DNA of 27,774 bases from Erysipelotrichaceae bacterium (GTDB lineage Bacteria > Bacillota_I > Bacilli_A > Erysipelotrichales > Erysipelotrichaceae), in NCBI GenBank assembly GCA_963586925.1, contig CAVAAT010000026.1, positions 1 through 27,774 of the forward strand, in the 5' to 3' direction. Position numbers and translations under genes: made by a program. Under the pieces are notes generated by a model. The model did no database searches. It saw only the letters and a program-made list of their open reading frames with translations, and was not told the origin of the DNA. Shown piece by piece: positions 4,276 through 22,805 of the stretch; within the stretch, counting starts at the first letter, position 1, and each line of letters begins with the position of its first letter.

Positions 4276-4277
4276 TT

Positions 4278-4904
4278 TTAATCACCAATATACTTTCTAC
4301 TATCTACTTGCAACATATAAACAAAACCTTGCAGATAGATCTTGACTAGATCTTTGAGACTATTGATATCGACATCATTGATCCAGAACAGTTCCTTTAA
4401 ACCACTTATCATTGAGACACAATAACTTCTAGCCAACACAGCGATCTGATCAGGATCCTTATCAGCATGAGTAGAAGTGATCAAGAAATTAATAAGATTA
4501 GTAAACCACTTCATCAGACTATTGTTTAATTCAGAGCCCATCATTAAGATATTAAACTCTTCCTTATAAGACATATATATATCAACAATGCTGTCTGCTA
4601 ACTCATTGACCACATTCTTTAATACCTCATTGCTTTCTGGAAAAGAGAAATTCTCGTTAAAAAAAGCGATCTTATCACCAGTTAGATTTTTGACCATTGA
4701 ATCAATAGCATTGACTACTCCATTAACGATCTGATAATTTAAATCTTCCTTGCTCTTAAAATACCGATAAAGATTACCAACTGTCATATTACTCTTAATA
4801 GCAATACGACGCATATTCGCATCATCATAACCATAATGCAGAAATTCATCCTTAGCAGCTTCAATGATCTTCTTTCTCGTTTCTTCCTTCAAAACCTGTG
4901 CCAT
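4278..4904 (-). CDS. TetR/AcrR family transcriptional regulator
   Basis: The N-terminal HTH has the typical TetR pattern (ANMRRIAIKSNMTVGNLYRYFKSKEDL). It is the first gene of the operon with the ABC ATPase and permease, with a 2-nt gap to the ATPase gene. Confidence 0.85.
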   Translation of the reverse strand: MAQVLKEETRKKIIEAAKDEFLHYGYDDANMRRIAIKSNMTVGNLYRYFKSKEDLNYQIVNGVVNAIDSMVKNLTGDKIAFFNENFSFPESNEVLKNVVNELADSIVDIYMSYKEEFNILMMGSELNNSLMKWFTNLINFLITSTHADKDPDQIAVLARSYCVSMISGLKELFWINDVDINSLKDLVKIYLQGFVYMLQVDSRKYIGD

Positions 4905-6269: not shown

Positions 6270-6400
6270 TCTTTGACACCCCAAAAATAGAAAAAATCAT
6301 AAAAGTCTCTAGAATCACTTAAAAATGGCCGTAAAAATTAAATTACGCTTTTTATTTGTCAAATTTTATGTATTTATATGTAGTAATTTGTAGCAATTCG

Positions 6401-6409
6401 TGATATAAT
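6401..6409 (+). promoter_or_regulatory. Extended -10 promoter element (TGATATAAT) for the transposase gene
   Basis: TGATATAAT lies at 6401-6409, about 20 nt upstream of the transposase ATG and just upstream of the GAGGGGGG SD (6418-6425). Confidence 0.4.
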
Positions 6410-6430
6410 GGTTGCGTGAGGGGGGATACC

Positions 6431-8170
6431 ATGCGTTTGACCATTACTAATACTAAGTCATCTAAACTTCTGTACCTAACCAAAAGCGTTCGTAAGAATA
6501 ATAAAGTCACCAGTGAAACTGTTGAAAAGTTAGGTAAGATGGAGGATTTAATGAAGTCTCAAGGTTTTTCTACTGAAGATGAAGTCATTGAATGGGCTAA
6601 GAAACTCGCTAAAGAAAAAACTGAGAAAATTCTATCAGATACTTCTACCTCCATTATCCTTAATCAAGATGTTCAAATTGAATTGGATAAAAGAAGAAAT
6701 TTCCAGGCAGGTTATTTGTTTTTACAAGATATCCTTTATGAGATGAAATTTAAAAATATCCTTAGAAATATTAAAAGTCGCCATAATTATAAGTACAACA
6801 TGGAATCCATATTCTCTGATCTTATATTCGCAAGAATACTTGATCCTTGTAGTAAGAGAGCTACTTTTGAAAATTGTAAAGACTTCTTAGAGCCTCCTAA
6901 GTATGAATTACATGATGTATACAGAGCTTTGAATGTTTTGGCTGAAGAAGATGATTATATTCAAGCAGAACTATTTAAAAACTCAAATTTCGTTATACAA
7001 AGAAATAAGAAGATTCTTTATTATGACTGCACTAACTATTTCTTTGAGATAACGGAAGAAGATGAACTTAGAAAATTTGGTAAAGAAAAGAATAATCGTC
7101 CTGATCCAATAGTTCAAATGGGTTTGTTTATGGATGGTGATGGAATACCTTTAGCTTACAATGTCTTTCCTGGTAATCAGAACGAACAAAAGAGCATGAC
7201 TCCTACTGAAAGTAAGATCATCAATGAGTTTGGATTGGAGAAGTTCATTATCTGTACTGATGCTGGCTTATCATCAGAGAATAATAAGAGATTTAACCAT
7301 GTCGATGGCAGAGGCTTTATCATCACTCAGTCACTCAAGTCGTTAAAAGAAGAAACTAAAGCTTGGGCTTTATCACCATATGATTTCAAGAGAGTTGGAG
7401 ATGATAAAGAGATAAATGATATCAACAACTTAGAAGAGGAAGATCCCAACTATATGACTCATCTTTACTATAAAGAAGCTCCCTATGATTTAAAAACTGT
7501 TGAGCAGAATCTTATTGTTACTTATTCTCCTAAGTATGCTCTATACAAAAAGAATAAGAGAGAAAGGCAAATTGAAGCAATCACTAAGAAAGTAGAAAAT
7601 GGAACCATAAAAAACAATAAGAAGAATAAGAATGATCCTGCTAGATTTGTCAGTAAGAATATCATTGATAAAACTACTGGTGAAGTACAAGAAGAAGTTG
7701 GAGATGAATACTATGTAGATGAAAGTAAAATAGCTGAAGAAGCTAAGTATGATGGATTCTATGCAGTTACTACTGACTTATTTAATGATAAGGTTGAAGA
7801 TATACTTACTATTTCAGAAAGAAGATGGGAAATAGAAGAATCTTTTAGAATAATGAAGACAGACTTTGAAGCTAGACCTGTTTACTTACAAAGAGAAGAT
7901 AGGATCAAGGCACATTTTCTCATCTGCTTTGTGGCTCTAATGGTATATAGAGTTCTTGAGAAGAAGTTAGACTATGAATACACAACTGATCAGATTATCT
8001 CTACCTTAAGAGACTACAAACTATTAAAGATATCGGGAGATGGATATGTTCCTACATATATGAGAACAGTGCTAACCGATAAGCTACATGAGGTGTTTGG
8101 ATTCCGTACAGACTACCAGATCAACACTACAGATAAGATCAGAAGTATAATAAAAAATACAAAATTATAA
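6431..8170 (+). CDS. DDE transposase, IS4 superfamily (IS1634-family-like)
   Basis: The ORF track starts at GTG 6416. ATG 6431 is preferred because it lies 5 nt after the GAGGGGGG SD. Candidate DDE residues sit in YYDCTNYFFE, ICTDAGLSS and the R-x3-E-x6-K signature RWEIEESFRIMK. The N-terminus MRLTITNTKSSKLLYLTKS resembles IS1634-type transposases from memory. Confidence 0.85.
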   Translation: MRLTITNTKSSKLLYLTKSVRKNNKVTSETVEKLGKMEDLMKSQGFSTEDEVIEWAKKLAKEKTEKILSDTSTSIILNQDVQIELDKRRNFQAGYLFLQDILYEMKFKNILRNIKSRHNYKYNMESIFSDLIFARILDPCSKRATFENCKDFLEPPKYELHDVYRALNVLAEEDDYIQAELFKNSNFVIQRNKKILYYDCTNYFFEITEEDELRKFGKEKNNRPDPIVQMGLFMDGDGIPLAYNVFPGNQNEQKSMTPTESKIINEFGLEKFIICTDAGLSSENNKRFNHVDGRGFIITQSLKSLKEETKAWALSPYDFKRVGDDKEINDINNLEEEDPNYMTHLYYKEAPYDLKTVEQNLIVTYSPKYALYKKNKRERQIEAITKKVENGTIKNNKKNKNDPARFVSKNIIDKTTGEVQEEVGDEYYVDESKIAEEAKYDGFYAVTTDLFNDKVEDILTISERRWEIEESFRIMKTDFEARPVYLQREDRIKAHFLICFVALMVYRVLEKKLDYEYTTDQIISTLRDYKLLKISGDGYVPTYMRTVLTDKLHEVFGFRTDYQINTTDKIRSIIKNTKL

Positions 8171-8203
8171 ATAAATTACTACACAAATGTACAAAACGAA
8201 AAA

Positions 8204-8412: not shown

Positions 8413-8491
8413 CCAAAAGATTATTTATAAATATTTTCAAGAAAAATGTGCATTAGTTAAACAATGACCTTTAGTTTTAAACTTTATTTCA

Positions 8492-10849
8492 TCATTCATC
8501 TTTACCACCTTTTATTTGTTGGTATGCTATTTTTAGTCTTGTTGTCTTTTGCGGCTTATCAATATTATTCTTATCAGCAATCCTACAAGCAATTTCGTAA
8601 GCACTAATTGCTTCTTGGTATAAATTAAGTTCAATTAAATGATCAGTAAATTGTTCCAACACTCTTATAACTAAAACTGTACACTTTTCTCCACTTTCCA
8701 AGTATTTACAATAGTCATCAAACAACTTTATAGCATCATCTTTAGCATTATGTACAGTTAAAAATTCTAACAAATAATAAACTGTGTTGTAACCATATTC
8801 ACTCTCCAATTTATCAATAACATTTAAGATCTCATAACTCAAATAATTTCTATAGAAGTTGCTATTATTTTTGAAATCATTTGGTATACTTGCATTGTTT
8901 TTTAATTTATTTCTATTTGAATAAAAGAACCTAATATCCTTGAGCGCACCAATGTGATCATAACAAATCCGCTCCAACATTTTTTCATAATAATTCGACT
9001 TTACTGGGTCATCACTAAAAGCTAAACACCTATCATAGATTCGATACAAGCAATTACAGCTATCTAATAAACACAAAACTATTTTTATCTCATCATTAGA
9101 TAATTTTCTTTCTTTATCTTGTATGAACCAACTATAAATAAAACTTCCCCAATAACCAAAAGCCCCCAAAGAAGAATCTATGAGACTACTAATCATCTTC
9201 CATTTGGCGCCAAAATTCTGCCACTCCTCATCATCTTCAGCCCATTCTTTTTTGTGAATTTCAAATTCTTTCTTAAATTGACAGTATGATGCGATACCTA
9301 ATTTATCATTATTATAATCAAACCATTTTAATACGTAATCTAGCTCTTTTTCACAATAATCAAGTGCCTTTTTATCATCTCTCTTAATACTTGTCCAGTA
9401 TTCAGCAATATTATTTAATAAAATAGCATATTTTGGAAGATATTGGGCAGCTCTTTCATCATTTAGTAAACTTTCATACACTTTTATATCTTGGTCAAAC
9501 TTATCAACATTAGGCATTCTTTCTAAAGTTTCTTCGTTATTTTTACTATGGAATTTAGCACTCAAATAATTTACTTCTAATTTTTTTTCTATCGCATCTT
9601 TTCGAGTCATATCAATAGAATCATCTAACGATTTTAGAGTTTCAAAAAACTTAATCCAATCGCTAGTTCTATACATATTAGCCAATTTTAGTTTTTCGAT
9701 AAACTCATCAGCATGTTTCATATATTCATCGTTATTGACAAGATCTATTTGATAAGGCAAAGCATATTCTAAAAATTGATTTTCCTCCAAAATAGTTCTC
9801 ATTAATTCCTTTGATTGAAGATATCCATCATCAGCAGATCTCTTTAAACATTCAAAGCCTTTTCTGAAGTTTTTTTCAACATCAATGCCATTTAAATAAG
9901 CTAATGCTATGTAAAACAAATGCTCAGGATCATTATTTTCCTTAATACCTTTACTAAACAATAATTTTTTTAAATCTTCGCTGATTTCAACATAGTTATT
10001 CTTATCAATTGGATCTTTGATTCCAATAAAATTATGTTTCAATTCGTCCTTATTTGTTTTGTCAACCTCTATTGGTAATACTTCTTTACCTCTTTTTACT
10101 GCTTCAGGGTATTCAATCCTAATAACATAATTACCTAGACCATCATTGTACTCATTAATATTAGGGGTAACTAATAAAGCCATTAGCTTGCTTTTATCAA
10201 TATAGTGACTAATCTCATCATTGTAATCCTCACCTGGAGTCAAAAAATCATCCCACCAAATTGCTACATCTCTCATTGACTCATCATAATGAATAGTAGA
10301 CATTATTTCATTAACAAATCTTCTATCCTTTTTCCTATATGACAAAAAGATGTATGCATCAAAAGCATCTTGAACCTTTTTATATGTATTTTCATCAACT
10401 AGTACAGATTGTAAATAAATTTTTAGTTTATCTCTAAATGTTGACATATTCTTAGTTCTATCCAATATCTGCTTTTTAGACAATTCTTCTGGCAAATTAT
10501 CCCAATCTAAAGTCCCATCAACTAATATTGGTAATACTCTTGCACCTTGTTTTAAAGCAGTAGAAAAATCTATATTCCTTGCTCTTGAAGGCTTTTTTAA
10601 ATAACTATCAACAGTTATAGGAAATACAAATAACGAAAACTGTGATAGATCAGCAAAATAATCTAATTCTTCTTCACTACTAGGATAGAAATTCTGATCC
10701 CCTAAATAATAAATAGAACAATCAGCAATTTCTGATATTTCATCCGTGATCACTTCAAACCATTTGTTAAAATCATCAGGATGGCAAGAAAAGTAAACTT
10801 TATTTATTCCTTTTCCTTTTATTTTATACTTTACATTATTATCATTCAT
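8492..10849 (-). CDS. Tandem TIR-domain protein with a SEL1-like repeat and a long helical (TPR-like) C-terminal region; last gene of the operon
   Basis: 785 aa. TIR-like domain 1 is about aa 17-112 (KVYFSCHPDD ... RNIDFSTALKQGARVLPILV). TIR domain 2 is about aa 165-262 (YIFLSYRKKDRRFV ... VAIWWDDFLTPGEDYNDEI ... LMALLVTPN ... YVIRIEYPEAVKRGKEVLPIEV). A SEL1-like unit is at about aa 309-345 (LFYIALAYLNGIDVEKNFRKGFECLKRSADDGY). The remaining ~430 aa are helix-rich. A GAAGGGA SD precedes it, and it starts 2 nt after the upstream gene's stop. Confidence 0.8.
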   Translation of the reverse strand: MNDNNVKYKIKGKGINKVYFSCHPDDFNKWFEVITDEISEIADCSIYYLGDQNFYPSSEEELDYFADLSQFSLFVFPITVDSYLKKPSRARNIDFSTALKQGARVLPILVDGTLDWDNLPEELSKKQILDRTKNMSTFRDKLKIYLQSVLVDENTYKKVQDAFDAYIFLSYRKKDRRFVNEIMSTIHYDESMRDVAIWWDDFLTPGEDYNDEISHYIDKSKLMALLVTPNINEYNDGLGNYVIRIEYPEAVKRGKEVLPIEVDKTNKDELKHNFIGIKDPIDKNNYVEISEDLKKLLFSKGIKENNDPEHLFYIALAYLNGIDVEKNFRKGFECLKRSADDGYLQSKELMRTILEENQFLEYALPYQIDLVNNDEYMKHADEFIEKLKLANMYRTSDWIKFFETLKSLDDSIDMTRKDAIEKKLEVNYLSAKFHSKNNEETLERMPNVDKFDQDIKVYESLLNDERAAQYLPKYAILLNNIAEYWTSIKRDDKKALDYCEKELDYVLKWFDYNNDKLGIASYCQFKKEFEIHKKEWAEDDEEWQNFGAKWKMISSLIDSSLGAFGYWGSFIYSWFIQDKERKLSNDEIKIVLCLLDSCNCLYRIYDRCLAFSDDPVKSNYYEKMLERICYDHIGALKDIRFFYSNRNKLKNNASIPNDFKNNSNFYRNYLSYEILNVIDKLESEYGYNTVYYLLEFLTVHNAKDDAIKLFDDYCKYLESGEKCTVLVIRVLEQFTDHLIELNLYQEAISAYEIACRIADKNNIDKPQKTTRLKIAYQQIKGGKDE

Positions 10850-10851
10850 TT

Positions 10852-12024
10852 TTATTGTCCCTTCAATAATTCTCTTATCTTTTTTAACTGCACAGTATCT
10901 TTATATTGTTCTTCTTTACTCAAAGTTTCAAAAGGTACTATACAATTATGTTTTCTATTTTCTTTATCAGTTATTGGACTATAACTCCAATTATGGTAAA
11001 GATAAAATCTACACCATTGGATATGTTCTAATTCAGCAAATACATCAATACTATATTTTTCAAATTCTTCGTCAGTTACTTGCACATAAGGTTTTCCAGA
11101 TAGTTTTTCTGCTAGTTTTATGATCGTACACTCAAAGAAATCTACCACCGAAATATTGCTGCCTTTATATAATGGAGAAAGAGCATTCCATTGTTGTTGA
11201 GCATTCCTTTTATCTTCTTTATTATATGCTGAAGAAAAATTATGATTGACCGCTTTAGCTTTTGCTAAAGCATCCATGTTGAACACATTTTCTGTGGTAC
11301 ATACTCCTTCAACATAATTGAATACCGACAAGTTTAATTTGTTTACTTTTCCATAGCAATGATCTGCAAATAATTCAACATTAACATCACTATCTGAAAA
11401 TAAGACAATATTCCCTTTAGATATACAACTCATTATCGTATATAGTTTTTCTTGTAAGCCAAAGAATAAGACTATATCCGCATTTTCTAACAAATCCTTA
11501 TTTTCAAGACAACACTCATCATGATAGATGATATTTAATTCTTTAGATTTATCATGAGACAGATTGAATAATCTATGATCACCAAACAAATGATAATTTA
11601 CGACTTGTTTAGCATCATATATATTGACCATTAATCCCTCATATAATACTTGTTGAGCTAATCTATTAAATCCCACTAGAACAACATTCATTTTCTCTTT
11701 AACTTTCCCGTTTTCAAAAGCAAGATTTATAAGTGAATGCTCTTTCCAAAACTTTCTAGCAATAATCATTTCTATCGAAAAGAAATTAACATTTTCTAAT
11801 ATAGCATTTTGAAAAAATGAATGTTTGAGAAATACTTCTTTATCTTTGAACTCTTTTCTATGTTCATAGTAGAAATTCATATTTTCTTTATCATCAGCCA
11901 ATAAAACATATTTGTCAGCTTTGCTTAAATCAGATTTTTCAATATAAATAGTCCCTTTATAATGATCGATAAATTGCTTACTATAAATATTATCCCCATA
12001 TACAAATACTGACTCTTTTTCCAT
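10852..12024 (-). CDS. Rossmann-like (degenerate KTN/TrkA-N-like) protein with a C-terminal RyR (ryanodine-receptor repeat) domain
   Basis: 390 aa. The C-terminus AELEHIQWCRFYLYHNWSYSPITDKENRKHNCIVPFETLSKEEQYKDT fits the RyR-domain pattern (H..W ... GW.YG ... K.HP.LVP%..L...EK..D). It is preceded by LAKAKAVNHNF ... WNALSPLYKGSNISVVDFFECTIIKL, which resembles the linker seen in bacterial TrkA-N+RyR proteins. The mid-region VVLVGFNRLAQQVL looks like a Rossmann beta1-loop with a degenerate glycine motif. A strong AAGGAGG SD precedes it. Confidence 0.65.
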   Translation of the reverse strand: MEKESVFVYGDNIYSKQFIDHYKGTIYIEKSDLSKADKYVLLADDKENMNFYYEHRKEFKDKEVFLKHSFFQNAILENVNFFSIEMIIARKFWKEHSLINLAFENGKVKEKMNVVLVGFNRLAQQVLYEGLMVNIYDAKQVVNYHLFGDHRLFNLSHDKSKELNIIYHDECCLENKDLLENADIVLFFGLQEKLYTIMSCISKGNIVLFSDSDVNVELFADHCYGKVNKLNLSVFNYVEGVCTTENVFNMDALAKAKAVNHNFSSAYNKEDKRNAQQQWNALSPLYKGSNISVVDFFECTIIKLAEKLSGKPYVQVTDEEFEKYSIDVFAELEHIQWCRFYLYHNWSYSPITDKENRKHNCIVPFETLSKEEQYKDTVQLKKIRELLKGQ

Positions 12025-12142: not shown

Positions 12143-12709
12143 CTAATATAATCCGCCAGAGATTGCTTCTACCAACTCATTACAACATTCTGATAGATCG
12201 ATTTTCCATTCTCCATCAACTTTTATCAAGTTAAGTTCCACTAAATAATCAACATCATCTGTTTTCTTTCTCTGTTCTGTAACTAACTTTTTCAGTTCTC
12301 TTTCTATCTGTTTTTCTGATTTACCATCGAGACTCATTGTCAATATTTTAGTAGGAACTAAAACCACCAAATTTGACACTATAACCTCCCAATTTTCCGT
12401 CGTGATTTTTACTTTAACTGTAGCATAATCACCATTCACTTCTTTATCAACCACTTTATATTCGAAATCCATGATATATTCAGAAATTATGTCTCCAATA
12501 TAATCTAGTGATTCACATTCTTCAATAATGTCAATAAAATCATGAATAACTGAATCTTGAGGATCTCCAAAGTACAATTTGTCTAAGATCTCTTCATCAC
12601 ATTTTCTGATCCCTTTGAATAAAGCTTTTGTAGTCCCATTAACAGAACTGCACCCTGTTAAACTAAAAACCATACAGACACTTAATAACAAGCATATTAA
12701 TTTTTTCAT
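12143..12709 (-). CDS. Small secreted lipoprotein (NTF2-like / DUF4878-like fold suspected)
   Basis: Signal peptide plus lipobox: MKKLICLLLSVCMVFSLTGC. The mature part contains GDYATVKVKITTENWEV ... LIKVDGEWKIDL, which is typical of small NTF2-like lipoproteins. An AAGGAGA SD precedes it, 5 nt after the upstream gene. Confidence 0.75.
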   Translation of the reverse strand: MKKLICLLLSVCMVFSLTGCSSVNGTTKALFKGIRKCDEEILDKLYFGDPQDSVIHDFIDIIEECESLDYIGDIISEYIMDFEYKVVDKEVNGDYATVKVKITTENWEVIVSNLVVLVPTKILTMSLDGKSEKQIERELKKLVTEQRKKTDDVDYLVELNLIKVDGEWKIDLSECCNELVEAISGGLY

Positions 12710-12714
12710 ATTAT

Positions 12715-13677
12715 TTATTCTCCTTCTATTTCACCACAATAATCAACTGGCAGTGGCCTCGTGGCATTTTTAAATGGACTATCCTTCAAAATAGATTGAT
12801 TCTTAATAAGATAAGCCGTTTTAAATCTCTTATAGCCAGTAGATCTTTCACTATTTTCCCCAGACATCAATATATCTTGTTTTACTGCCATTTCTTTATC
12901 ACTGACCATAAAGAAGTATTGTACCGTTGACCATAATGCCATACCATCATATAACTCATTAACAAGTTTTCCATAGCTCTTTTTGATTTCCTTTTTATTC
13001 CAATTAAGATATTGCCATATATGAGTTAATTGATATACCGTTTCAATCAACGCTTGAGTTCTAGGGTAATCCTTTTCAAAGTATAATAAGAAATGATTTT
13101 TTTGCCACAACACCAATGAATTGATCTTATGGTCTTTTGTATTTGAAGGTATCAATTGTTTTCCAGCTTTTTTTAATAAAGTGCTTTTATCAATTACCTC
13201 AATCCTTATATCTCCATTAATACTAATGCCAAAAAAGTTTTCCATATTTCTTTTAGCATCTTCTAACATAAGTCGATAATCTTTTTCTTCAATAAGTGAT
13301 GATCTATCACAATTAGTACACTTTGTCCTGCCATCTACAGTTAGTACAAAATCATTTCCCATTATATCTTCACTACAAAAATCACACTTTCTAGTTTGAC
13401 TATCATAAGGTTTAAAAACCTCTTTAATCCTATTTGCAGAGATCTTGTTTTTTCTTGCTTGCTTCAAAGGATTATTACCATACCCATTAGCGACAAGAAA
13501 ATTGCGTGTTTCTAGTGGAACTATCCTTTTTGGAAGATCCGATTGACCATAATGAATATATGCTTCTCTAAAAGCTGAAATTCCATTCACATCGGTAAAC
13601 CCCCCCACAGAAAATGATTTTTCTGATACTTTTTCCTCATTTTGTTCTTCTTTTTTATCATTCTGTTCCATCATCAC
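12715..13677 (-). CDS. Zinc-ribbon protein with a DA1-like peptidase-type module whose HExxH is degenerate (YQLTH)
   Basis: 320 aa. A CxxC ... CxxC zinc ribbon is present (C98-D-F-C101 ... C120-T-N-C123). Downstream, FEKDYPRTQALIETVYQLTHIWQYLNW ... LYDGMALW aligns from memory with the DA1-like ...lp..l.g.ilAHEmmHaW ... EGfc motif, with His-to-Tyr and Glu-to-Gln changes. The track start at 13677 is GTG. ATG 13674 or 13671 after the GAGGTGA SD is equally likely. The gene overlaps the upstream gene's end by about 14-20 nt. Confidence 0.55.
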   Translation of the reverse strand: MMMEQNDKKEEQNEEKVSEKSFSVGGFTDVNGISAFREAYIHYGQSDLPKRIVPLETRNFLVANGYGNNPLKQARKNKISANRIKEVFKPYDSQTRKCDFCSEDIMGNDFVLTVDGRTKCTNCDRSSLIEEKDYRLMLEDAKRNMENFFGISINGDIRIEVIDKSTLLKKAGKQLIPSNTKDHKINSLVLWQKNHFLLYFEKDYPRTQALIETVYQLTHIWQYLNWNKKEIKKSYGKLVNELYDGMALWSTVQYFFMVSDKEMAVKQDILMSGENSERSTGYKRFKTAYLIKNQSILKDSPFKNATRPLPVDYCGEIEGE

Positions 13678-16600
13678 TCACCTCATTGTCATCCACCACG
13701 CTATTTAATTCATCATCTTTGACCTGTTCAATTGAATTTGTTTCATTTTCCATTTCTTTAGAAGTCGAATGTTCTTCGTTTTCATCAATGAATTCTTTAT
13801 CACTATTTAAAGGTTGCTCTTTTTCTGTCTTACCAGTTTCTTGCTTGCTCCTATTTTGTTCAGATTGTTCTTGAACTGAATCATTTATCTTTTCTATATC
13901 TTGCTTTGATGGATCTATTTCTTCGCTAGATTCTGCATTATCTTTCTTCGATTGTTTTTCCTTAAATTTATCAAAGAAACTCTTTTTCTTTGGTTGTTTA
14001 GGTCGAGAAATGTTTACTGGTTCAATTAAAGTTTCTTCCTCTAGATCAATATTGCCATTTTCAGCCTTATCTTTCATTTCAAGATACCAATCAAGATAAT
14101 CGCAAATGATCTCTAAAATACGATCAATATTTCTTTCAACTGTTTCTATTAATCCAATGTCCAATTGACTATCTTCTACAATATAGATAGCATTCTCTTT
14201 CAGAATATCTTTTTGTTCACTTACATCATAAATCATATAAGTCAATGGTCCATTTTCCTCGTAAGGCACGAAAGTTAGAGACTCATAATCTTCATCTGTT
14301 TGAAAGGAAGTTAAGGCAACAATATAAGCACTATCTTGAGCAAACATTGTTCTAAAGATTTCATTCATCAATAAACAGATCGTGTATGAAATATTAGCAT
14401 TTTCTTTATATTCTGCTGATTGGTCAAATGACAAAGTCAATATACGTTTATTAACATAATGCCTCTCAGGTACAGACTCATTATCTGTATCAAATAAGAC
14501 TAAAGTTGATTCATTAATCTTGTTATAATGTTTCATCTTGTAATAACCTTGAGTCTTAACAGTAAAATCAGCATATTCACTTCCTAAAGTAATCTGATTG
14601 ATCTGTTTACTGTCTTTTCCTTTAGTCGACTTTGCAAATGATTCAAAGCCATAATCTCTTATCTGACGATACTCATAACGATCATCAATATGATCTGCTG
14701 ATCTTCTTAAGATTATTTCGTTCTGGGCAGATAATCTAACCATTTGATAATATTTGCCACAACGTGTAATAAACTGGCCAGGCAAAGTCTTTTGGAATAC
14801 TTGCGACACTAATTCAGTTCCTAAATAATTACCTTTTTCATATTCATCCTCTGCGACATAAGAAGCCAAATGCAAATCTGAAACAAATGCTTCAATGAAG
14901 TCTTTATTATCAATTGAATACAGATTATCATTCTTACCTTCTTCAAAGTTATATTTTTGACTGATCGATATTACATCAATATCAAATTCTTTACCATTCT
15001 TTTCTATTATTCTATTAGATACTTCTTCTACAGCTTTCTCATATTCAGAAGGCAAGTCCTTTTCTATAGCAGTACTAGTAAAGCACATGTAAATCTCATA
15101 CCATAATTGTTTCTTGATGTTTATAGCCTTTATACCAATAAGAGAGAATTCATCAACTATTTCTTTTTCGTAAACAGGATGATCGCTCATCATAAAGATC
15201 ATTGATAAAGCGAAGTTCCTATTTGTCTTAGCATAATCAGCTACGAAATTAGGAATAGCTTTTGGATCACTTAAAAATATATTGAAATTCCAAGCCATAT
15301 AATCCCTTAACAAATAATCAGGACAAATAACATTGACAAATCCTTGAGAAATACTTCTAGTAGAAAAATCCCTAACTAGTTCAAACAAGTTATAAACTTC
15401 ATCTTCTACTGTCAGATAACTTTCATCACTAATAGGGGCATCCCAATAGCCATTAGAAGTAACAAACTTCTTATCAATCAATCCTTGTTCACTCGGTAAA
15501 TCAGCATAAACTGCTAAGTCATGGTAGTATTGTTTAACGATCCACTTCATATCTACTACAGGGAACATCTCTCCCCCATACCATTTAGTCTGTGGTATCT
15601 TATTTTTAAGAGCACTAAATGATAATTCCGTACCAATACCTAAATATCTAGAAATATTAGCTATCATCTTATGGTGCATATATTCATCAGTACTACGCCA
15701 ACACATATATGAAACTGTACCTTTATGTTTATTTGTGGCAGATACTTTGCTGATAGAATTTAATAAGATGTGCGACATGGCATCAACAAGGCCATCACAA
15801 TTTTTCTCCGTCAAGCAATATACAAGTTTCTTTTCTCTATCTTTCCTTCTGCATTTTTTAATGATAAGATTCAAACCAATTTGAGCTGTTGTTATTAACT
15901 TACTTGGCTCAATAATAAAAACAAATTCCACATCTTCAAAAAATTCTTCATTATCTTGCATCAATTGTAAATCTGTTACATCAGATCTATTGATGATACC
16001 GATATTACCATCAAAACCTTCTTCTTTCAGATTACCAATTTTCCAAAAATAAGGCAGATTAGTCACCGATTTAACTCCTTCTTCCAACCATCTTACGATG
16101 TCATCTTCAATACCGTGTCTTCCTAATACAACCAACACCTTTTTATTTGCTAATAGGCTTTGCTGCATAGGATAAAAAGCATAAGGAATTAAATCATGAT
16201 AGAAAGGATCATTGAATAAAATACTTTTTCCTTGTAATAATTCTAATGATGATTGAAAATAATTTTGATCTAATGATAAACCTTTTTGCACTTTCTTTTT
16301 GAAAAACTTAGCAAACATCCTAATTTTATGATCATTACTTTTCTCATATTTTCTAAGTAATTGTTCTGCTGTTAATCCCTGATAAGAAGTATTTGAACTA
16401 GTTCCTTCACTTACCACATTATCTTTAAATAAAGAGTTCAATACTTTTCTCATCAATGAATAATTAACTGAGACTTTAACACCATTTTCGTCATCGTAAA
16501 CTTCTTTTAAGAATTCTTTCTTAGTCAAGCCATCTATAAAGAAGAACATTTCTCCTAACATAATGATCGAATAAGCTGGAATAAACACATAACTAAGTGA

Positions 16601-17137
16601 ACCATCTTCAACTAAATACTTTGTTATTGTCATTAAGATTAGACTAATAAGCAAACATGACCAATAAGCAACTTTAAAAAGTTTTCTAGTCTCAATTCTA
16701 TCTTCACTTAAAAACCAACAACCACGTTCACTATCATATTGGTAAATATTACAAGATATCTTTTCCATTAGATGATTATCTAACTTAACTATCTTTTTCA
16801 TGATAGCAATAGCAATCCCCTTAATAGTAATAAATACTAACAAGATTAATAAACAAATGATAAAGTCAATCCAAGTATCCCAATCTACCGAACGAATAAA
16901 GGAATCTATAACATCAATGAATTGTCCAATAGACCAATCAATTAAATTTAATAAGATGTTTCTTAATTTATGAACACAAAAAATAACTACAATAACGTAA
17001 ATACATCCAATAAAAGGCATCAAAAATTGCTTTACTCTTTCCTCTTGTGACAAATTTATCTTTTTTATCCACATACAATGGAGAAAAATCACTAACAACC
17101 AAGATCCTATTTTTAAAAACTCAATAATATTGTCCAT
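13658..17137 (-). CDS. Large polytopic membrane protein of unknown function (1159 aa) with an acidic disordered C-terminal tail
   Basis: About 5 N-terminal TM helices (e.g. WLLVIFLHCMWI, FIGCIYVIVVIFCV, FIICLLILLVFITIKGIAIAI, AYWSCLLISLILMTI, FIPAYSIIMLGEMFFFI) precede an ~800-aa soluble region with no motif I recognise. The last ~125 aa are K/E/D/S/Q-rich low complexity. A strong GGAGGAAA SD is present. The start overlaps the upstream stop by 17 nt. Confidence 0.8.
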   Translation of the reverse strand: MDNIIEFLKIGSWLLVIFLHCMWIKKINLSQEERVKQFLMPFIGCIYVIVVIFCVHKLRNILLNLIDWSIGQFIDVIDSFIRSVDWDTWIDFIICLLILLVFITIKGIAIAIMKKIVKLDNHLMEKISCNIYQYDSERGCWFLSEDRIETRKLFKVAYWSCLLISLILMTITKYLVEDGSLSYVFIPAYSIIMLGEMFFFIDGLTKKEFLKEVYDDENGVKVSVNYSLMRKVLNSLFKDNVVSEGTSSNTSYQGLTAEQLLRKYEKSNDHKIRMFAKFFKKKVQKGLSLDQNYFQSSLELLQGKSILFNDPFYHDLIPYAFYPMQQSLLANKKVLVVLGRHGIEDDIVRWLEEGVKSVTNLPYFWKIGNLKEEGFDGNIGIINRSDVTDLQLMQDNEEFFEDVEFVFIIEPSKLITTAQIGLNLIIKKCRRKDREKKLVYCLTEKNCDGLVDAMSHILLNSISKVSATNKHKGTVSYMCWRSTDEYMHHKMIANISRYLGIGTELSFSALKNKIPQTKWYGGEMFPVVDMKWIVKQYYHDLAVYADLPSEQGLIDKKFVTSNGYWDAPISDESYLTVEDEVYNLFELVRDFSTRSISQGFVNVICPDYLLRDYMAWNFNIFLSDPKAIPNFVADYAKTNRNFALSMIFMMSDHPVYEKEIVDEFSLIGIKAINIKKQLWYEIYMCFTSTAIEKDLPSEYEKAVEEVSNRIIEKNGKEFDIDVISISQKYNFEEGKNDNLYSIDNKDFIEAFVSDLHLASYVAEDEYEKGNYLGTELVSQVFQKTLPGQFITRCGKYYQMVRLSAQNEIILRRSADHIDDRYEYRQIRDYGFESFAKSTKGKDSKQINQITLGSEYADFTVKTQGYYKMKHYNKINESTLVLFDTDNESVPERHYVNKRILTLSFDQSAEYKENANISYTICLLMNEIFRTMFAQDSAYIVALTSFQTDEDYESLTFVPYEENGPLTYMIYDVSEQKDILKENAIYIVEDSQLDIGLIETVERNIDRILEIICDYLDWYLEMKDKAENGNIDLEEETLIEPVNISRPKQPKKKSFFDKFKEKQSKKDNAESSEEIDPSKQDIEKINDSVQEQSEQNRSKQETGKTEKEQPLNSDKEFIDENEEHSTSKEMENETNSIEQVKDDELNSVVDDNEVSDDGTE

Positions 17138-19172
17138 ACATTTCCTCCATCTGCAGAGTAACTTTATCTACAAATTCCGATGGTATTTCAACATGATTAT
17201 CTTCTTGTAGATAACTGATAGTTGAAGTACCCATTATCATCTTCATTTCGTAATGATATTTGATCTTTTTAGTGTAATCATAGCCAAAAGGATCTTTATC
17301 ACCTTTAACTTTGATCTTATCTAAAGGACTTAGATAATGATCATATTCACTATAAATCTCGCTTAGAACTTCATCCAAATCCTTCTTATGTTTACTTAAA
17401 ATAAATAACAAATTAGTTGCTTTCTTACCAAAATAGTTGATTATACCATTTAGCCTCATGATAGAGGCATTTTTGGAAAGATAACGACTTGCCAAGATTA
17501 AGCTATCATAGATAGCACTAACTATATTACTGATAGTCTTGTTAAACTTTTTAAATAGTCTTATAAGTAAGTACTTGAATACAAGTAAAGTAACAAATAA
17601 CACAACAACAAATATAATGATAGCTACTAGTGCTAATGATATATATGACCGAACATCTTCTCCATCAATAAAAGCATTTAATGGATAAACACTTACTCCA
17701 AATGAAAACAATAAAATCAGAATAAGAGAGAAAATGATCGTTGGTCTTTTATTCATTCTTTGATCAATCCTAGCTCTGATCTCATTATCAGCCTCATCCA
17801 TTTTCTTACTATAGTCATCGAAGTCTAAAATATCTTGAGGATCAATCTCAGATAATTGTTCTTCTACACTGATGAGTTTATATTCAACATCTTCACATTG
17901 ATATTCTGTAAAATCAGCAATCCTTTCATCATAATAATCCTTTTTTACATAGAAATTATCTTTAACTTTTGTTTTTACTGCTCTTTGAGGTTGCCTCATA
18001 TACTTAATGAACTCTTTATGAATGGAATCAGATTGTTCATTCCAATATTCTTCTTCACTTTCTGGACAATCTTGCGATAAACCAATACGGTCATGTTCAC
18101 AATACAAACCATCCTCACCATATTCTTTATCAATCTCACAAACGATAGTCTCATCTTTTTCAAAAAGAGTCTTAAAATCATTTCTTTTTAGATGAGTTGC
18201 CTTTTTGTTTAACTCTTGTTTTTCTAACGATTCAATACTATTTTTAGCTGATAATAAATCAGAAACAAAATCATCACATTTTTTTAACAAGACATCTTCC
18301 TTTAGTTTTATATCCACTTTGTAGACCTTGTAAGGTTTAATAGCATCATTAGGATATTCATTAGTCGCTAAGATATTGATCAAAGTACAGAAAGGCAGAT
18401 TATTTTTACTGATCCTAATTTTTTCATGATTATATTCAACATCAAATAATAGGAATCTAACATTATGAGGATATAAGTTATTCTCGACAAAGTTTAAATA
18501 CTCATCTTTATGTATTTCACTATGCCAAATACCAATCTCCTCACAGTAAACTGCTCTTTCCGACAATACTGTAACATTCTTAGGCAAGTTTTCGAACAAA
18601 CAATCATTATTTTGAGCGATAATCTCTTGTGTAATTTGACTACCATATTGCACTCTAAAACTATTAGCACTTACTGCTAATCTAGTTGGATCATCTTCCT
18701 TATCCTTTAACTCTTCTCTTATTTCATTATCAGCTAATTCTTCTTCGACTCCAAAAAAATTTACATAAGGCCTCATGAGCCAATTGGTCAATCTGACCAA
18801 CGGCTCATTTGACACTTCATGAATGATTTGTTTGGCATTGTTGTAATAATTGATCACATCGTCAATAGTTTTCAAATCTTCCAATTTTTTTTCAATTTGA
18901 TCATGCATGCTATATAGATCAAAAGGGTTGCCATTGACACATTCAGTAAGAGCGATATTGGCAATGCCGAAAGTATTCAATATTAGCACACGCCAATCTC
19001 TCTTATCAGCGATAGTCTCTCTTAGCTGGGGTACTGCCATATCAATATTTGTTCCTTCCTTATTCCAAGACAAGAAAACAACTTCTTCACTAGAAAATGA
19101 ACTTAGAAAAGCGTTATATTTAGTTTTACAATCATCGATAATCTTCTTATCGCAGATAACTACTGTAAACAT
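17121..19172 (-). CDS. Membrane protein of unknown function (683 aa)
   Basis: It is a long ORF in the operon frame. Two TM helices lie in the C-terminal third (TIIFSLILILLFSFGVSVYPL; ISLALVAIIIFVVVLFVTLLVF). The ~470-aa N-terminal soluble region has no recognisable catalytic motif. The SD is weak (AAAAGAG), and the gene starts 18 nt after the tubulin-like gene's stop. Confidence 0.75.
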   Translation of the reverse strand: MFTVVICDKKIIDDCKTKYNAFLSSFSSEEVVFLSWNKEGTNIDMAVPQLRETIADKRDWRVLILNTFGIANIALTECVNGNPFDLYSMHDQIEKKLEDLKTIDDVINYYNNAKQIIHEVSNEPLVRLTNWLMRPYVNFFGVEEELADNEIREELKDKEDDPTRLAVSANSFRVQYGSQITQEIIAQNNDCLFENLPKNVTVLSERAVYCEEIGIWHSEIHKDEYLNFVENNLYPHNVRFLLFDVEYNHEKIRISKNNLPFCTLINILATNEYPNDAIKPYKVYKVDIKLKEDVLLKKCDDFVSDLLSAKNSIESLEKQELNKKATHLKRNDFKTLFEKDETIVCEIDKEYGEDGLYCEHDRIGLSQDCPESEEEYWNEQSDSIHKEFIKYMRQPQRAVKTKVKDNFYVKKDYYDERIADFTEYQCEDVEYKLISVEEQLSEIDPQDILDFDDYSKKMDEADNEIRARIDQRMNKRPTIIFSLILILLFSFGVSVYPLNAFIDGEDVRSYISLALVAIIIFVVVLFVTLLVFKYLLIRLFKKFNKTISNIVSAIYDSLILASRYLSKNASIMRLNGIINYFGKKATNLLFILSKHKKDLDEVLSEIYSEYDHYLSPLDKIKVKGDKDPFGYDYTKKIKYHYEMKMIMGTSTISYLQEDNHVEIPSEFVDKVTLQMEEMYGQYY

Positions 19173-19190
19173 AGTAACACTCTTTTCTTA

Positions 19191-22100
19191 CTACTGTGAT
19201 TCCTTAACTAAGTTATCAAAATATGCAACATCAGCATTCTTTCTAGATAAATATGATCTAATGTTATCTTTAATAGCATCCAAAGTATCCCAGCCAGCAT
19301 TTTTCAAGATTTCTACTTTTTCATAATTATCTTGAAGAATCTTATATTGCTCCCCTGATACTTTAACCCACAGAACTTCAGAATCGTTTTTCTTTTCAAC
19401 AGTAGAGATCTCTCTCTTTAACACATACATTAATGCCCATACCATTGTTTTTAATTCATTAGAATCCTTACTCTTTGTAGGTAATGAACCGTAATATAGC
19501 ATTGGTAGTTCAAACACTGACATCTGTTCTGTATCATTAGCATCTTCAACTATTTCACTTCTCTTCATATGTGTCATTTCTGTAAAGAATTTGGTACTAT
19601 CATATTTAGTAGGCTTTGCTGCATCTTTTGAACGGAAACCTGAGGCAATATTATGAATGTCATTAACACGTTTTCTATCAAAATATAATGACTCTAATAC
19701 TTCATATAACTTGTTGCAAGTATTACCATCAGAAGTTAATAGGAAATCATTCTTATTATCGCCATCATAACAATAAGCCTTATCATTAACATTGTGTATT
19801 GATTTAGGCATTAACTTAACTGCTTTATAAATGAAGCTATAGAAGAATGCTTCGTGAATATGACCCATTAACATCTTTTGGAAATCAAGGTTCATTTCTG
19901 GCATTACCGAAATCGAATTCCATTTTTTATCAATATGTGGAGTAATAACTGGATTTAATGTTGAATCTGGCCCAATATCTTCCATATATTTCTGATAATT
20001 TTTGAAATATTCACCTGAATCTTCTGAATATAATCTTCCATCAGATTCTGGAGTAACATATTTTAAGGCACTAATATCATCAGGAGTTAGACCATAATTT
20101 GATCTAAAACAATGGATCTCATATTTAGAAATAGAAGAAGTTTTATTTTCCTTATCTAAATAATCTTTGAAATCTGAAATATTGATGTTAGGATCATCAT
20201 CGTTAACACCTGCACCATAAGACATTTCAGAAACTTCTCTATCTTCTTTGATGTTAGCAATTGAAAGCATAGGAGCAGCTAATGTCCTTAGTTCTTTTAA
20301 GCTATCATTGATATACTGATTTCTAATATTTCTATCATTAGCATTCTTAATGATAACTTCTTTTTGATCTTCATCTTTTTCTTCAGAAGTTTTGATCATT
20401 TGATTTATCTCAAATTCATATTTTAAACCATGTAAGATATCAAGATTGATCTTATCATCACAGCTATTAGAAACTTCCTTCTTATAGTCTTCTATTATAA
20501 CATCGTTAAAAATATCTTTATATGCTTCTAACAGTGAAGGATTTCCATCTTTCTTTTTAGATATCTCAGCATTCTCTTTAAATGCTGTAAATAAATCGGC
20601 AAACATCCGCGAATTATCAGCTGTACTAGTCTGTAGTTCAACAACTTTATTTAACATCTTTTCGCTCGAAAGTATATTTTTAACACAATCTCCTTTTTTA
20701 TATTCAATCTCGCCAACCAATTCTTTTTTTCTCTTCTCAATTACCGGGATTTTGCTTTCAAATGAATTATAAAACTTCTCAATTTCTTTGATCATAGGAT
20801 TGACATATTTTAATCCTTCTTCACATACTTTTCTCTTTACTATTGCTTCAGATCTTTCGTTGACTACTTTAAACAATTTTTCTAATAGTTTTTGTGCACG
20901 ATTACTACAATTATGATCCACTAATTTAACCCAGAAATTAGCATTTTCACATTCACGCACCATCTGACTAAGATTTATCTCCTTTTGACCATTTCCCTTA
21001 ACTTGAAATGATTTGGTTTTATTTTTATCATCATCTTTTCCTGCATAAATTTCATTGTACTTTTTTATATACTCATCATCGCCAGAAGATGTGCTATTCA
21101 CTTCATCATCCATTAAATTTCTTAATTTATAAAGAACTGCACGAAGTGCATTTGGATGCATAATGTTATCCGAACCTATAGAAACCAAATTCTCAAATGA
21201 ATAATTTCCTATTTCCAAATTTTGTGAGAATGTACCAGTGGAAGCCATTGCCTTTTTAATAAAGTTTTTTGACAACTCTTTGATCTTTTCATTCTTTTGA
21301 TTCATTGCATGAATTTCTTCAATTCTCTTCATTTGATTGCTAATTGGAATCTTCTTTGTTTTAACGTTATTAATATCATCGCTAGTCAGTTGAGAATCTT
21401 GTAGAATTAATGACATTAATTCCTTCTTCAAATTGATAATAAATTGCTCGGCAATCTTCTCAACTTTGTTTGAAAAAATATCATTTTCCGATTGATCATC
21501 CACGTATTTTCCGTATTTTAAACTAATACTTTTCTGAATCTCTACTCCAAAATCTGAAGTAGACGAGTCTAATCCACTGATATAAACTTCACTTAACTTT
21601 GGCTGCTCATTTCTACTGCCATTTTCATACTCTTTTAATTGCTGTTCATATTCTTTATCCCAAGCAACCCACGTATTCTTAACTAACTCTTCATTATCAA
21701 CATTTTTAACATTTCTAACACCTAAAATATTCTTTTCAGCCCAGCAATAAGCTATATAGTCCCGAATCTGTTCATAAGGATACCTTAAAACAGCTGCCCC
21801 AACTGAGCCAAATCTACTTCTTCCTAATAACTTAGGGTCAATGAATGTTTTAATGACGTTATCTTCTTGAGAAGATGCCTTTTTAGATAAAATACTGATG
21901 TTCTGTTCATAGATACATTGAGATACTGTCTTTTCATATTGAGACAAAGATTTCATAGTCTTTTGATTGTTATCATTCTTCTCAATCAAAAAGCAAAAAT
22001 CAAATGGTAAGTTGTCAATATTTCTATTTGTGCCATCAGTATTAGGAACACTTATACTTAAACCTTTGTATCTTTTTAATTCATCTGTAGTTTCAAAAAA

Positions 22101-22784
22101 ACCCGATCCTTTCATCATGAAAGCATTGATCTCTCTTAACGTAGCATAGCCATTTCTTTCTTGAGAGGCCATTTCACTTTCTGATTTTATCTTGGTCCTC
22201 ATTACTCCTGGCATAATAAAGAAACCTCGAATAATAGATGAAGATTCAGGATAATTTCTATTGATATAGTCTCTGATCAACATTGATACCTCTAAAGCAA
22301 TGCCTGAACCAGTACCACCTGTTGCAGTAGAAGCAATGACCACTTTAATAGCTCTTTGATGATCATTCCCATCTTTCAAATACAACTCGTTTATTGCATC
22401 ATATAAAGATTTAATTTTATTTTGTTTGATAGTTGCATTTAAAGCTAATCTAGATATTGCCCTAACTTGACCCGCACCCTCAGAAACTGTTTTATAATCT
22501 AAGATTCTATTATTAGGGAACCAATTATTTTTTGCTTCCTTATCATAATTCAAGTACTCTTTTATCTTTCTTGTTGATGATGTTTGAACAGCAGTTATTG
22601 GCGTTTCGCTATTTAGTCTAGATATATCATTAGTATCAGTATCCAAAACAACAAAACGCATATTGTTCTTATCATCATTCTTACATAAATCTGCTACACC
22701 TTTGATAATTCTGCCACCAATTCCTCCAACTCCAACAAATAATGTTGGAACTATCTTATTTGACTGTAACTTTTCCTTTTCCAT
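19191..22784 (-). CDS. Giant tubulin/FtsZ-superfamily GTPase-like protein (Tubulin_2-type N-terminal domain plus ~950-aa uncharacterised extension)
   Basis: 1197 aa. The N-terminal ~230 aa carry the FtsZ/tubulin nucleotide-binding loops in the correct order: T1 LFVGVGGIGGRII (aa 15-27), VVLDTD (aa 45-50), T3 SEGAGQVRAISRLA (aa 101-114), and T4 signature ATGGTGSG (aa 154-161). GGTGSG was verified at nt 22302-22319. A GGAG SD precedes it. Confidence 0.8.
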   Translation of the reverse strand: MEKEKLQSNKIVPTLFVGVGGIGGRIIKGVADLCKNDDKNNMRFVVLDTDTNDISRLNSETPITAVQTSSTRKIKEYLNYDKEAKNNWFPNNRILDYKTVSEGAGQVRAISRLALNATIKQNKIKSLYDAINELYLKDGNDHQRAIKVVIASTATGGTGSGIALEVSMLIRDYINRNYPESSSIIRGFFIMPGVMRTKIKSESEMASQERNGYATLREINAFMMKGSGFFETTDELKRYKGLSISVPNTDGTNRNIDNLPFDFCFLIEKNDNNQKTMKSLSQYEKTVSQCIYEQNISILSKKASSQEDNVIKTFIDPKLLGRSRFGSVGAAVLRYPYEQIRDYIAYCWAEKNILGVRNVKNVDNEELVKNTWVAWDKEYEQQLKEYENGSRNEQPKLSEVYISGLDSSTSDFGVEIQKSISLKYGKYVDDQSENDIFSNKVEKIAEQFIINLKKELMSLILQDSQLTSDDINNVKTKKIPISNQMKRIEEIHAMNQKNEKIKELSKNFIKKAMASTGTFSQNLEIGNYSFENLVSIGSDNIMHPNALRAVLYKLRNLMDDEVNSTSSGDDEYIKKYNEIYAGKDDDKNKTKSFQVKGNGQKEINLSQMVRECENANFWVKLVDHNCSNRAQKLLEKLFKVVNERSEAIVKRKVCEEGLKYVNPMIKEIEKFYNSFESKIPVIEKRKKELVGEIEYKKGDCVKNILSSEKMLNKVVELQTSTADNSRMFADLFTAFKENAEISKKKDGNPSLLEAYKDIFNDVIIEDYKKEVSNSCDDKINLDILHGLKYEFEINQMIKTSEEKDEDQKEVIIKNANDRNIRNQYINDSLKELRTLAAPMLSIANIKEDREVSEMSYGAGVNDDDPNINISDFKDYLDKENKTSSISKYEIHCFRSNYGLTPDDISALKYVTPESDGRLYSEDSGEYFKNYQKYMEDIGPDSTLNPVITPHIDKKWNSISVMPEMNLDFQKMLMGHIHEAFFYSFIYKAVKLMPKSIHNVNDKAYCYDGDNKNDFLLTSDGNTCNKLYEVLESLYFDRKRVNDIHNIASGFRSKDAAKPTKYDSTKFFTEMTHMKRSEIVEDANDTEQMSVFELPMLYYGSLPTKSKDSNELKTMVWALMYVLKREISTVEKKNDSEVLWVKVSGEQYKILQDNYEKVEILKNAGWDTLDAIKDNIRSYLSRKNADVAYFDNLVKESQ

Positions 22785-22805
22785 TTTTTTATCTCCATTT
22801 CTTTA

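Follow-up and report, generated by a model that had tools for sequence, protein, structure and literature searches.

Bacterial immune proteins in which a TIR domain is combined with helical repeats are already known. TIR-II of Escherichia coli, a single protein made up of a TIR domain and tetratricopeptide repeats (TPRs), confers a protection against phage for which the catalytic residues of its TIR domain are required (PMC11350192), and the BcTir/Tpr pair of Bacillus cereus consists of a TIR protein and a MilB-like glycosidase-TPR protein, only one of which is an active NAD+-cleaving enzyme, or NADase (bioRxiv 10.1101/2023.05.26.542521). In this study we analyze a gene of an Erysipelotrichaceae bacterium (8492..10849, minus strand) that encodes a 785-residue protein carrying two TIR-like units in tandem, a Sel1-like repeat and a long C-terminal region. 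The stretch of DNA in which it lies, hereafter the window, is 27,774 nucleotides (nt) long and comprises positions 1 to 27,774 of contig CAVAAT010000026.1 (assembly GCA_963586925.1). Judging from its sequence relationships, the double-TIR protein is probably a bacterial immune protein of a large, uncharacterized gut-Firmicute family, and we put at roughly 0.55 the probability that it acts as a cytoplasmic sensor-effector NADase of the bacterial TIR-plus-helical-repeat (TIR-TPR) immune class.

The resemblance to TIR-II lies in the fusion of a TIR to a helical-repeat sensor within one polypeptide; it is a likeness of architecture, and the TPR arrays are those of other family members, the window protein having only a Sel1-like repeat that scores below threshold. 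Unlike TIR-II, the protein studied here has two TIR units plus Sel1, its family is found mainly in gut Firmicutes and, in the clade of the window, it is operon-linked to RyR-domain and tubulin-like genes. BcTir/Tpr shares with it the combination of a canonical TIR, a diverged TIR/MilB-like domain and TPRs, again as a likeness of architecture, but BcTir/Tpr is a system of two proteins in which the diverged, TPR-linked domain is active (E86), whereas here the domains are fused and it is the canonical TIR that abuts the repeats.

Thoeris ThsB is also an anti-phage TIR protein and provided the sole match in PADLOC 2023 (E 2.9e-5, residues 166-253). The double-TIR architecture is much larger, however, and Thoeris was rejected because PADLOC and Pfam revealed no ThsA-type effector in the window, that is, no SIR2, SLOG or Macro domain in any of its proteins. 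SPARTA was set aside as well, there being no Argonaute or APAZ match in the window and a resemblance limited to the TIR fold, and a CBASS-type TIR system was rejected for want of partner genes in the window. A literature search returned nothing that matched tandem bacterial TIRs or systems combining tubulin with TIR. TIR-repeat immune proteins are thus the known part of what we describe; the double TIR and its linkage to RyR and tubulin genes are the new part.

Two TIR units of different kinds in one protein

The open reading frame (ORF) begins with an ATG that has a plausible GGGA ribosome-binding site 8 nt 5' of it, and this start codon lies 2 nt past the stop codon of the upstream RyR gene, a gap that suggests translational coupling. 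On the minus strand, unit 1, a diverged TIR-fold domain (residues ~16-150), is encoded at 10400..10804; unit 2, a canonical TIR_2 domain of the SARM1/AbTir type (residues ~163-282), at 10004..10363; the Sel1-like repeat (residues ~308-343) at 9821..9928; and the lineage-specific C-terminal 435 residues at 8495..9799. A first, sequence-only reading of the locus had recognized two tandem TIR-like units from motifs that we locate at residues 88-108 (unit 1) and 241-260 (unit 2), and the profile, model and Foldseek evidence given below bears this out. The two residues on which that reading turned are Asp94 (codon GAT, 10568..10570), which occupies the catalytic-Glu position of unit 1, and Glu246 (codon GAA, 10112..10114), the predicted catalytic Glu of unit 2.

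Unit 2 matches Pfam TIR_2 (PF13676) over residues 167-282 (E 4.5e-11; 43.7 bits, with a gathering threshold of 28 bits) and is, by profile, the only one of the two units that belongs to this family; Pfam found no match for residues 1-160 or 350-785. Nine of its residues, S170, Y171, R172, K173, D175, W198, D200, G206 and E246, are invariant across the 257-259 sampled modules that have a residue at the position concerned, N240 is invariant as well, and E246 is present in 258/258 and followed by Y247 in 255/258 and P248 in 256/258. The NAD-contacting motifs (S-Y/H-R, the strand-B Asp and the BB-loop Gly) are therefore present in unit 2, and they are absent from unit 1. When the unit-2 profile was compared by hhalign with the TIR domain of human SARM1, whose sequence was checked against the PDB, E246 fell on E642 and Y171/R172 on Y568/R569 (85%, E 6e-6), and HMMER placed E246 on the Glu of the 'WVHKE' motif of Caenorhabditis elegans TIR-1. 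The likeness to SARM1 and TIR-1 includes S-Y-R-(R/K) after strand A, an aromatic residue and then Glu on helix C, and G-K-x-[IV]-x-P leading into strand D. The acidic residue and the Pro of 'LPI' in strand D are 13 residues apart in SARM1 as well as in both units, compared with 17 in AbTir, and the sequence in between is similar (EIVTALSCGKNIVP for SARM1, EYPEAVKRGKEVLP for unit 2, DFSTALKQGARVLP for unit 1). Unit 2 differs from SARM1 and TIR-1 in one extra residue between the aromatic residue and the Glu, and the whole protein differs in having no ARM or SAM domain; unit 2 is preceded by the diverged TIR and followed by Sel1 and putative helical repeats.

The best profile matches of unit 2 in the PDB were AbTir (E 1e-5), TLR10, BtTir and TIR-1. 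AbTir, BtTir and TcpB are also linked to the protein by Foldseek and by the 'W-Y-D-E-F-x-L-x-x-G' motif of strand B and the BB loop; the helix-C register is ambiguous, strand D of AbTir lies 4 residues further from the Glu, and AbTir-type proteins have a coiled-coil N-terminus where the present protein has a tandem TIR with repeats. The start of helix C at residue 241 in the model also favors the SARM1 register, and E246 is probably the equivalent of the catalytic Glu.

The kinship of unit 1 to TIR domains emerged only from profile-profile and fold comparison. Unit 1 of the window protein has no Pfam match, 2/32 of its homologues matched Pfam TIR_2 when taken alone (best E 6.9e-6), and searches of PDB sequences with unit 1, as a single sequence or as a profile, returned no significant match. 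BLASTP of unit 1 against unit 2 matched only a 21-residue stretch (E 8e-5), whereas hhalign of the two unit profiles, each built from a 32-sequence alignment (A2 for unit 1, A3 for unit 2), gave a probability of 97.2% (E 3.2e-11) over 122 columns and paired D26 with D175, T79 with T228, D94 with E246, A98 with A250 and the two 'LPI' strands with each other. Searched against 1.84 billion representatives, the profile of unit 1 matched two stretches in nearly every member of the family. The AlphaFold2 (AF2) model of unit 1 alone has a predicted local distance difference test (pLDDT) score of 92.3, and that of residues 1-350 a pLDDT of 90.7 and a predicted TM-score of 0.79. With Foldseek, the best PDB matches of the unit-1 model were SPARTA TIR-APAZ (E 3e-5, query TM-score 0.64), PdTIR, SARM1, TcpB, AbTir and MyD88, the TIR matches spanning E 3e-5 to 1e-3 and query TM-scores of 0.5-0.65; it also matches the N-glycosidases MilB, nucleoside 2-deoxyribosyltransferase (NDT) and DNPH1. 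The top matches of residues 1-350 were SPARTA TIR-APAZ, SARM1, RPS4, AbTir, TcpB and PdTIR. On the predicted models, then, both units match TIR folds in a comparison set that included AbTir and the SPARTA TIR, and at the level of fold both belong to the TIR superfamily.

According to the sequence-only reading, unit 1 appears to lack the catalytic Glu and the protein might join one active TIR to one regulatory or assembly TIR. Asp94 does stand opposite Glu246, but the position has been neither lost nor allowed to degenerate: over 261 modules column 94 holds Asp in 174 (67%), Glu in 83 (32%), another residue in 3 (1%) and a gap in 1, and is thus acidic in 257/261; in the clade of the window it is always Asp, save for one Asn. 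What unit 1 has replaced are the Tyr-Arg, Trp/Asp and BB-loop Gly motifs of enzymatic TIRs, with C22-H23 where Tyr-Arg would be expected and a BB region devoid of conserved Asp or Gly. In their place it has a near-invariant set of its own (F20, C22, H23, P24, D26, F27, C44, Y48, P77, T79, R89, A90, A98, L106, P107 and E111), forming the motifs V-Y-F-x-C-H-P-x-D-F, C44, Y48, L-F-V-x-P-x-T, R89-A90, A98 and L-P, and most of these residues map to helix C or to the C-terminal ends of strands A to C, the ligand side of the fold. Units with Glu94 more often also have W47 and D49, to which W198 and D200 correspond in unit 2, and this points to a graded divergence from the canonical TIR, from near-canonical to strongly diverged.

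Ratios of nonsynonymous to synonymous substitution rates (dN/dS), measured against 85%-identical orthologues, are lowest in the Sel1 segment (0.03) and unit 2 (0.09), rise to 0.14-0.16 in unit 1 and reach 0.19-0.21 in the C-terminal region, the highest within the protein. Together with the acidic column 94 and the conserved set peculiar to unit 1, its ratio argues that this unit is functional and re-specialized rather than a relic; by these substitution patterns it is a maintained domain under purifying selection and not a decayed copy. With the motif set kept in unit 2 and replaced in unit 1, one canonical plus one specialized TIR is therefore a fair description of the protein. Unit 1 also behaves as a mobile domain: in one family member of 1192 residues (P0018) the order is unit 1-TPR-unit 1-TIR-Sel1-TPR, the first unit 1 being joined straight to TPRs, and another of 1903 residues (P0121) has four matching stretches, or two double modules.

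The proposed SEL1-like repeat holds as a conserved element, if not as a formal Pfam assignment. Its score over residues 313-343 is 27.4 bits, under the Pfam cut-off of 30.7, but its motif (H310, A317, Y318, G321) is nearly invariant in homologues, and the AF2 model of residues 1-350 places helices at 308-320 and 328-340. The C-terminal 435 residues stand where other family members have TPR arrays. The ~430 residues of helical repeats that the sequence-only reading saw here must be regarded as putative, Pfam detecting no repeat in them. A homologue search with this region returned one close relative and tblastn matched only L001 and L002, the two metagenome contigs nearest to the window; a wider spread of the region with other effectors was accordingly rejected. 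A database cluster representative listed as 100% identical to the protein (P0001) differs from the window translation at at least two residues, G50V and E291V.

A gut-Firmicute family and its RyR and tubulin neighbors

A word-indexed search with the double-TIR protein gave 1891 matches, nearly all of them covering the first 42-45% of the query and continuing into TPR arrays, and an exhaustive profile search yielded no fewer than 2384 clusters (50% identity), of which 1408 had E <= 1e-30. When one genome was scanned for each species, at least 522 loci of the family came to light, almost all in gut or rumen Clostridia (Oscillospiraceae, Lachnospiraceae, Ruminococcaceae and Christensenellaceae) and Erysipelotrichaceae, with a few on contigs of metagenome-assembled genomes of Treponema or Muribaculaceae. 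Its core is a double-TIR plus Sel1 module of ~340 residues, which aligns end to end in all 120 best homologues, and most members are stand-alone genes in which this conserved module is followed by variable, unalignable tails of TPR_12/TPR_10 arrays. A genome can have several copies, some in tandem arrays (three in a row in L030, for example). Some loci adjoin other defense genes, namely Kiwa genes with an integrase in L004 and GmrSD in L008. A conserved enzymatic head, a hypervariable repeat tail and an expansion of paralogues form the pattern of immune receptors.

At NCBI the members are labeled only as 'TIR domain-containing' or 'tetratricopeptide repeat' proteins. A phage or plasmid origin was rejected, as tblastn of the 350-residue module against isolate collections, with 50,697 records for phages and 72,556 for plasmids, gave no match. 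A family so large and so centered on gut Clostridia, absent both from these isolate records and from PADLOC 2023, would represent a probably abundant, as yet uncharted part of the immunity and NAD+ metabolism of gut commensals, its main hosts being the Clostridia of human and animal guts.

In the window the gene lies behind a longer operon, of a class for which there is a literature. Operons combining FtsZl1 with vWA proteins were proposed as membrane-remodeling systems (Makarova and Koonin 2010, PMC2875224), and tubulin/vWA neighborhoods, including the tubulin-containing GAP1-N2, have since been treated as conflict systems (Kaur et al. 2020, PMC7159879); in the text of neither paper did we find a TIR or RyR partner for the tubulin operons. 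The order in the window, all on the minus strand, is vWA, Tubulin_2, genes for proteins of 683, 1159, 320 and 188 residues, RyR and double-TIR. The block upstream of the RyR gene (12143..25043) was delimited by Pfam matches, by transmembrane (TM) and lipobox features and by the gene order in L001, L002 and a third contig, L003. It opens with a vWA lipoprotein that has a C-terminal TM segment (22806-25043; VWA 22.3 bits, below the cut-off of 23.8), adjoined by the 1197-residue Tubulin_2 (FtsZl1) protein (19191-22784; Pfam Tubulin_2 E 1.5e-54, 186 bits), an order kept in L001 and L003. The 683-residue protein has two C-terminal and the 1159-residue protein four N-terminal TM segments, and the 188-residue protein is a lipoprotein, so that four operon proteins are membrane-anchored or lipoproteins. 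The gap of 118 nt between the 188-residue and RyR genes shows no promoter or terminator signal beyond the shuffled background.

This block resembles the FtsZl1-vWA operons in its Tubulin_2 protein with a long C-terminal extension, its membrane-anchored vWA protein, its lineage-specific membrane proteins and its occurrence in Firmicutes. It differs from the GAP1-N2 system in that no GAP1-type or other P-loop GTPase was detected; this component was rejected on finding no Walker-A motif in the operon proteins and no GTPase match in Pfam or NCBIfam. The operon order is shared by L001 and L002, which have 84-85% DNA identity to the window, and these nearest relatives keep Tubulin_2 through to the RyR-domain gene and then double-TIR. 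L003 carries a more distant version, to which a ParA/MinD-like ATPase is added and in which the RyR and TIR genes overlap. The 320-residue protein (12715-13677) matches no family but carries a zinc-ribbon-like motif (CxxC...CxxC), and its gene corresponds in position to the ParA-like and 405-residue genes of L003.

None of the 80 sampled genome loci of the family has a tubulin gene, and the role of effector of a tubulin operon would therefore extend to a small clade at most. The link to the RyR gene reaches further. In the window this gene (10852..12024, minus strand) encodes 390 residues with the RyR domain at the C-terminus (Pfam RyR E 6.4e-8; PDB RyR repeats E 3e-10), and RyR proteins also occur beside double-TIR genes where there is no tubulin: L008/L009 have the order TIR-RyR-TIR, the two genes are direct neighbors in L070, and they lie no more than a few kb apart in L021, L041, L048 and L077. 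The recurrent neighbor is a protein of 390-480 residues whose N-terminal domain of ~320 residues belongs to no recognizable family; that of the window protein has no Pfam, NCBIfam or PDB match. The RyR protein may be a dedicated partner of double-TIR proteins, and the RyR plus double-TIR cassette could be either a module appended to the FtsZl1/vWA operon in one clade or an independent neighbor of that operon.

Proposed mode of action and competing explanations

TIR NADases are activated through asymmetric TIR-TIR contacts. In the mechanism that we propose, unit 2 would be a SARM1/AbTir-type NAD+-cleaving TIR with Glu246 as its catalytic residue, and unit 1 an old internal duplicate of unit 2 whose NAD-contacting residues were exchanged for Cys-His-Pro after strand A, Arg89 and Asp/Glu94. 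Unit 1 would most likely serve as a TIR partner in cis that regulates or completes the active site of unit 2, or that binds a small ligand, and the Sel1 repeat and C-terminal region would be the trigger-binding or docking part, in place of the hypervariable TPR arrays of other members. Activation would probably proceed by oligomerization, leading to depletion of NAD+, to a signal derived from ADP-ribose (ADPR), or to both. In the clade of the window the double-TIR protein would be the output of the membrane-associated FtsZl1/vWA operon, coupled to the RyR protein. A family that hard-wires a re-specialized TIR beside a catalytic one would be a natural experiment on how such contacts are controlled, and may reveal a new ligand pocket. 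An enzymatic effector at the end of an FtsZl1/vWA operon would also support the conflict-system interpretation of these operons and provide an output that can be assayed.

Several observations weigh against this NADase reading. Gapless alignments to AbTir and BtTir by HMMER and hhalign put the catalytic Glu (AbTir E208) on V242 and set E246 against a Leu. A Glu at the catalytic position is also known in non-enzymatic TIRs, so that E246 alone would not suffice as proof of activity. The PADLOC match to ThsB is only a weak one, and there is none for the operon partners; Pfam detects no repeat in the C-terminal 435 residues; and, of 9 loci whose gene lists were inspected, only 3 had clear defense neighbors.

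A bolder extension of the proposed mechanism, which we regard as speculative and rather unlikely, would have the FtsZl1 GTPase, the extracytoplasmic vWA lipoprotein and their membrane partners carry out surveillance from the cell surface to the cytoplasm, with the polymerization state relayed through the RyR protein to the double-TIR NADases and with unit 1 as an asymmetric partner or a ligand-gated lock. We know of no TIR enzyme for which such an arrangement, coupled to a cytoskeletal filament, has been described; if true, it would amount to a cytoskeletal-filament-coupled innate immune system in gut Firmicutes.

The features that mark unit 1 as functional also allow both TIR units to be enzymes. 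Asp/Glu94 and the Cys-His pair would then act on another substrate or product, such as the ADPR-derived product of unit 2, or on the N-glycosidic bond of a nucleotide in the manner of MilB and DNPH1. An acidic residue in 257/261 modules, with Glu in 32%, fits such a role, as do the clustering of conserved residues in the ligand-binding region of TIR and related folds (helix C and the C-terminal ends of strands A, B and C), the Foldseek matches to MilB, nucleoside 2-deoxyribosyltransferase and DNPH1, and the direct fusion of unit 1 to TPRs without unit 2 in P0018, which recalls BcTpr. Asp and Glu are freely exchanged at position 94, however, where unit 2 has an absolute Glu, and unit 1 shows no conservation in its BB-loop region; we consider a second enzymatic activity improbable.

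The RyR gene, for its part, invites a comparison with Thoeris-style signaling, in which the double-TIR protein would sense infection and make an ADPR-derived messenger, and the real effector would be the RyR protein or the tubulin/vWA complex that reads it. The RyR gene lies 2 nt upstream and accompanies double-TIR genes even without the tubulin operon, the 320-residue N-terminal domain of its product could bind a ligand, and the weak PADLOC match is to ThsB. As set against this, RyR is a neighbor at only 5/80 loci, the PADLOC and Pfam scans found no ThsA-like SIR2, SLOG or Macro effector in the window, and the RyR protein has no recognizable nucleotide-binding domain, which together make this, too, an improbable account.

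The gapless AbTir and BtTir alignments raise a further objection to Glu246 as the catalytic residue. In them, N206-Y207 falls on N240-Y241 and E208 on V242; if this register were correct, the canonical position would be Val242, neither unit would have a classical Glu, and E246-Y-P would be a family-specific feature one helical turn further on with some other role. The SARM1 and TIR-1 alignments, by contrast, both set their Glu on E246, the Glu-to-'LPI' spacing is the 13 residues of SARM1 and not the 17 of AbTir, predicted helix C begins at 241, so that residue 242 would sit in its first turn, and it is E246 alone that is invariant. The longer Glu-to-Pro span of AbTir explains the shift in register, and we judge it quite improbable that E246 is misassigned.

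It is very unlikely that the protein is a non-immune structural adaptor whose TIRs dock a cytoplasmic repeat protein onto the FtsZl1/vWA membrane-remodeling machinery of Makarova and Koonin (2010), a role that would suit the first interpretation of these operons (PMC2875224), their four membrane-anchored proteins and the capacity of TIR domains to be pure scaffolds, but that conflicts with the invariance of the full enzymatic motif set in unit 2, with a family that lies overwhelmingly outside tubulin operons and shows paralogue expansion and variable tails, and with the re-reading of tubulin/vWA neighborhoods as conflict systems (PMC7159879).

A lost paralogue and the flanks of the operon

The terminal place of the double-TIR gene had been taken in the sequence-only reading to fit an effector role, an argument that does not survive comparison with the nearest relatives. 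In L001 and L002 a second, paralogous double-TIR gene follows directly after the first (944 and 973 residues, with an N-terminal module 48-51% identical), and the terminal place in the window is secondary. Although tblastn found no remnant of this second gene in the window, direct translation revealed a stub of 20 codons (8437..8499, minus strand) that reads MNDEIKFKTKGHCLTNAHFS up to a stop codon, where the gene of L001 starts with MKFEVKGSGLTKVYFSCCPDDF. The DNA colinearity of the window with L001 and L002 ends at 8438 and resumes at 6266 (L002), inside an LRR_5 gene. An insertion sequence (IS) of the IS4 family (6366..8196, plus strand), bounded by 24-nt inverted repeats (6366-6389 and 8173-8196) and encoding a DDE_Tnp_1 transposase identified by Pfam (6416-8170, plus strand), occupies the place taken in the relatives by the second TIR gene together with the 5' portion of the LRR_5 gene, and beyond it lies the ORF of a truncated leucine-rich repeat (LRR) gene (5326-6318, minus strand). 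The stub, the IS4-family element and the break in colinearity indicate that the terminal position results from an IS-associated deletion.

BspA-type LRR_5 genes recur within a few kb of double-TIR genes at unrelated loci (window 25217-26725, minus strand; L002 12995-14611; L007 13730-15343; L008 17688-18740), which could be coincidence or a functional link. Further downstream of the double-TIR gene is a TetR/ABC/FtsX-MacB efflux cluster (218-4904, minus strand), and at the other end of the window a serine recombinase (resolvase) gene (27163-27774, minus strand) runs off the edge. It may be that the TIR/tubulin block belongs to a mobile island (G+C content of the window, 30.9%).

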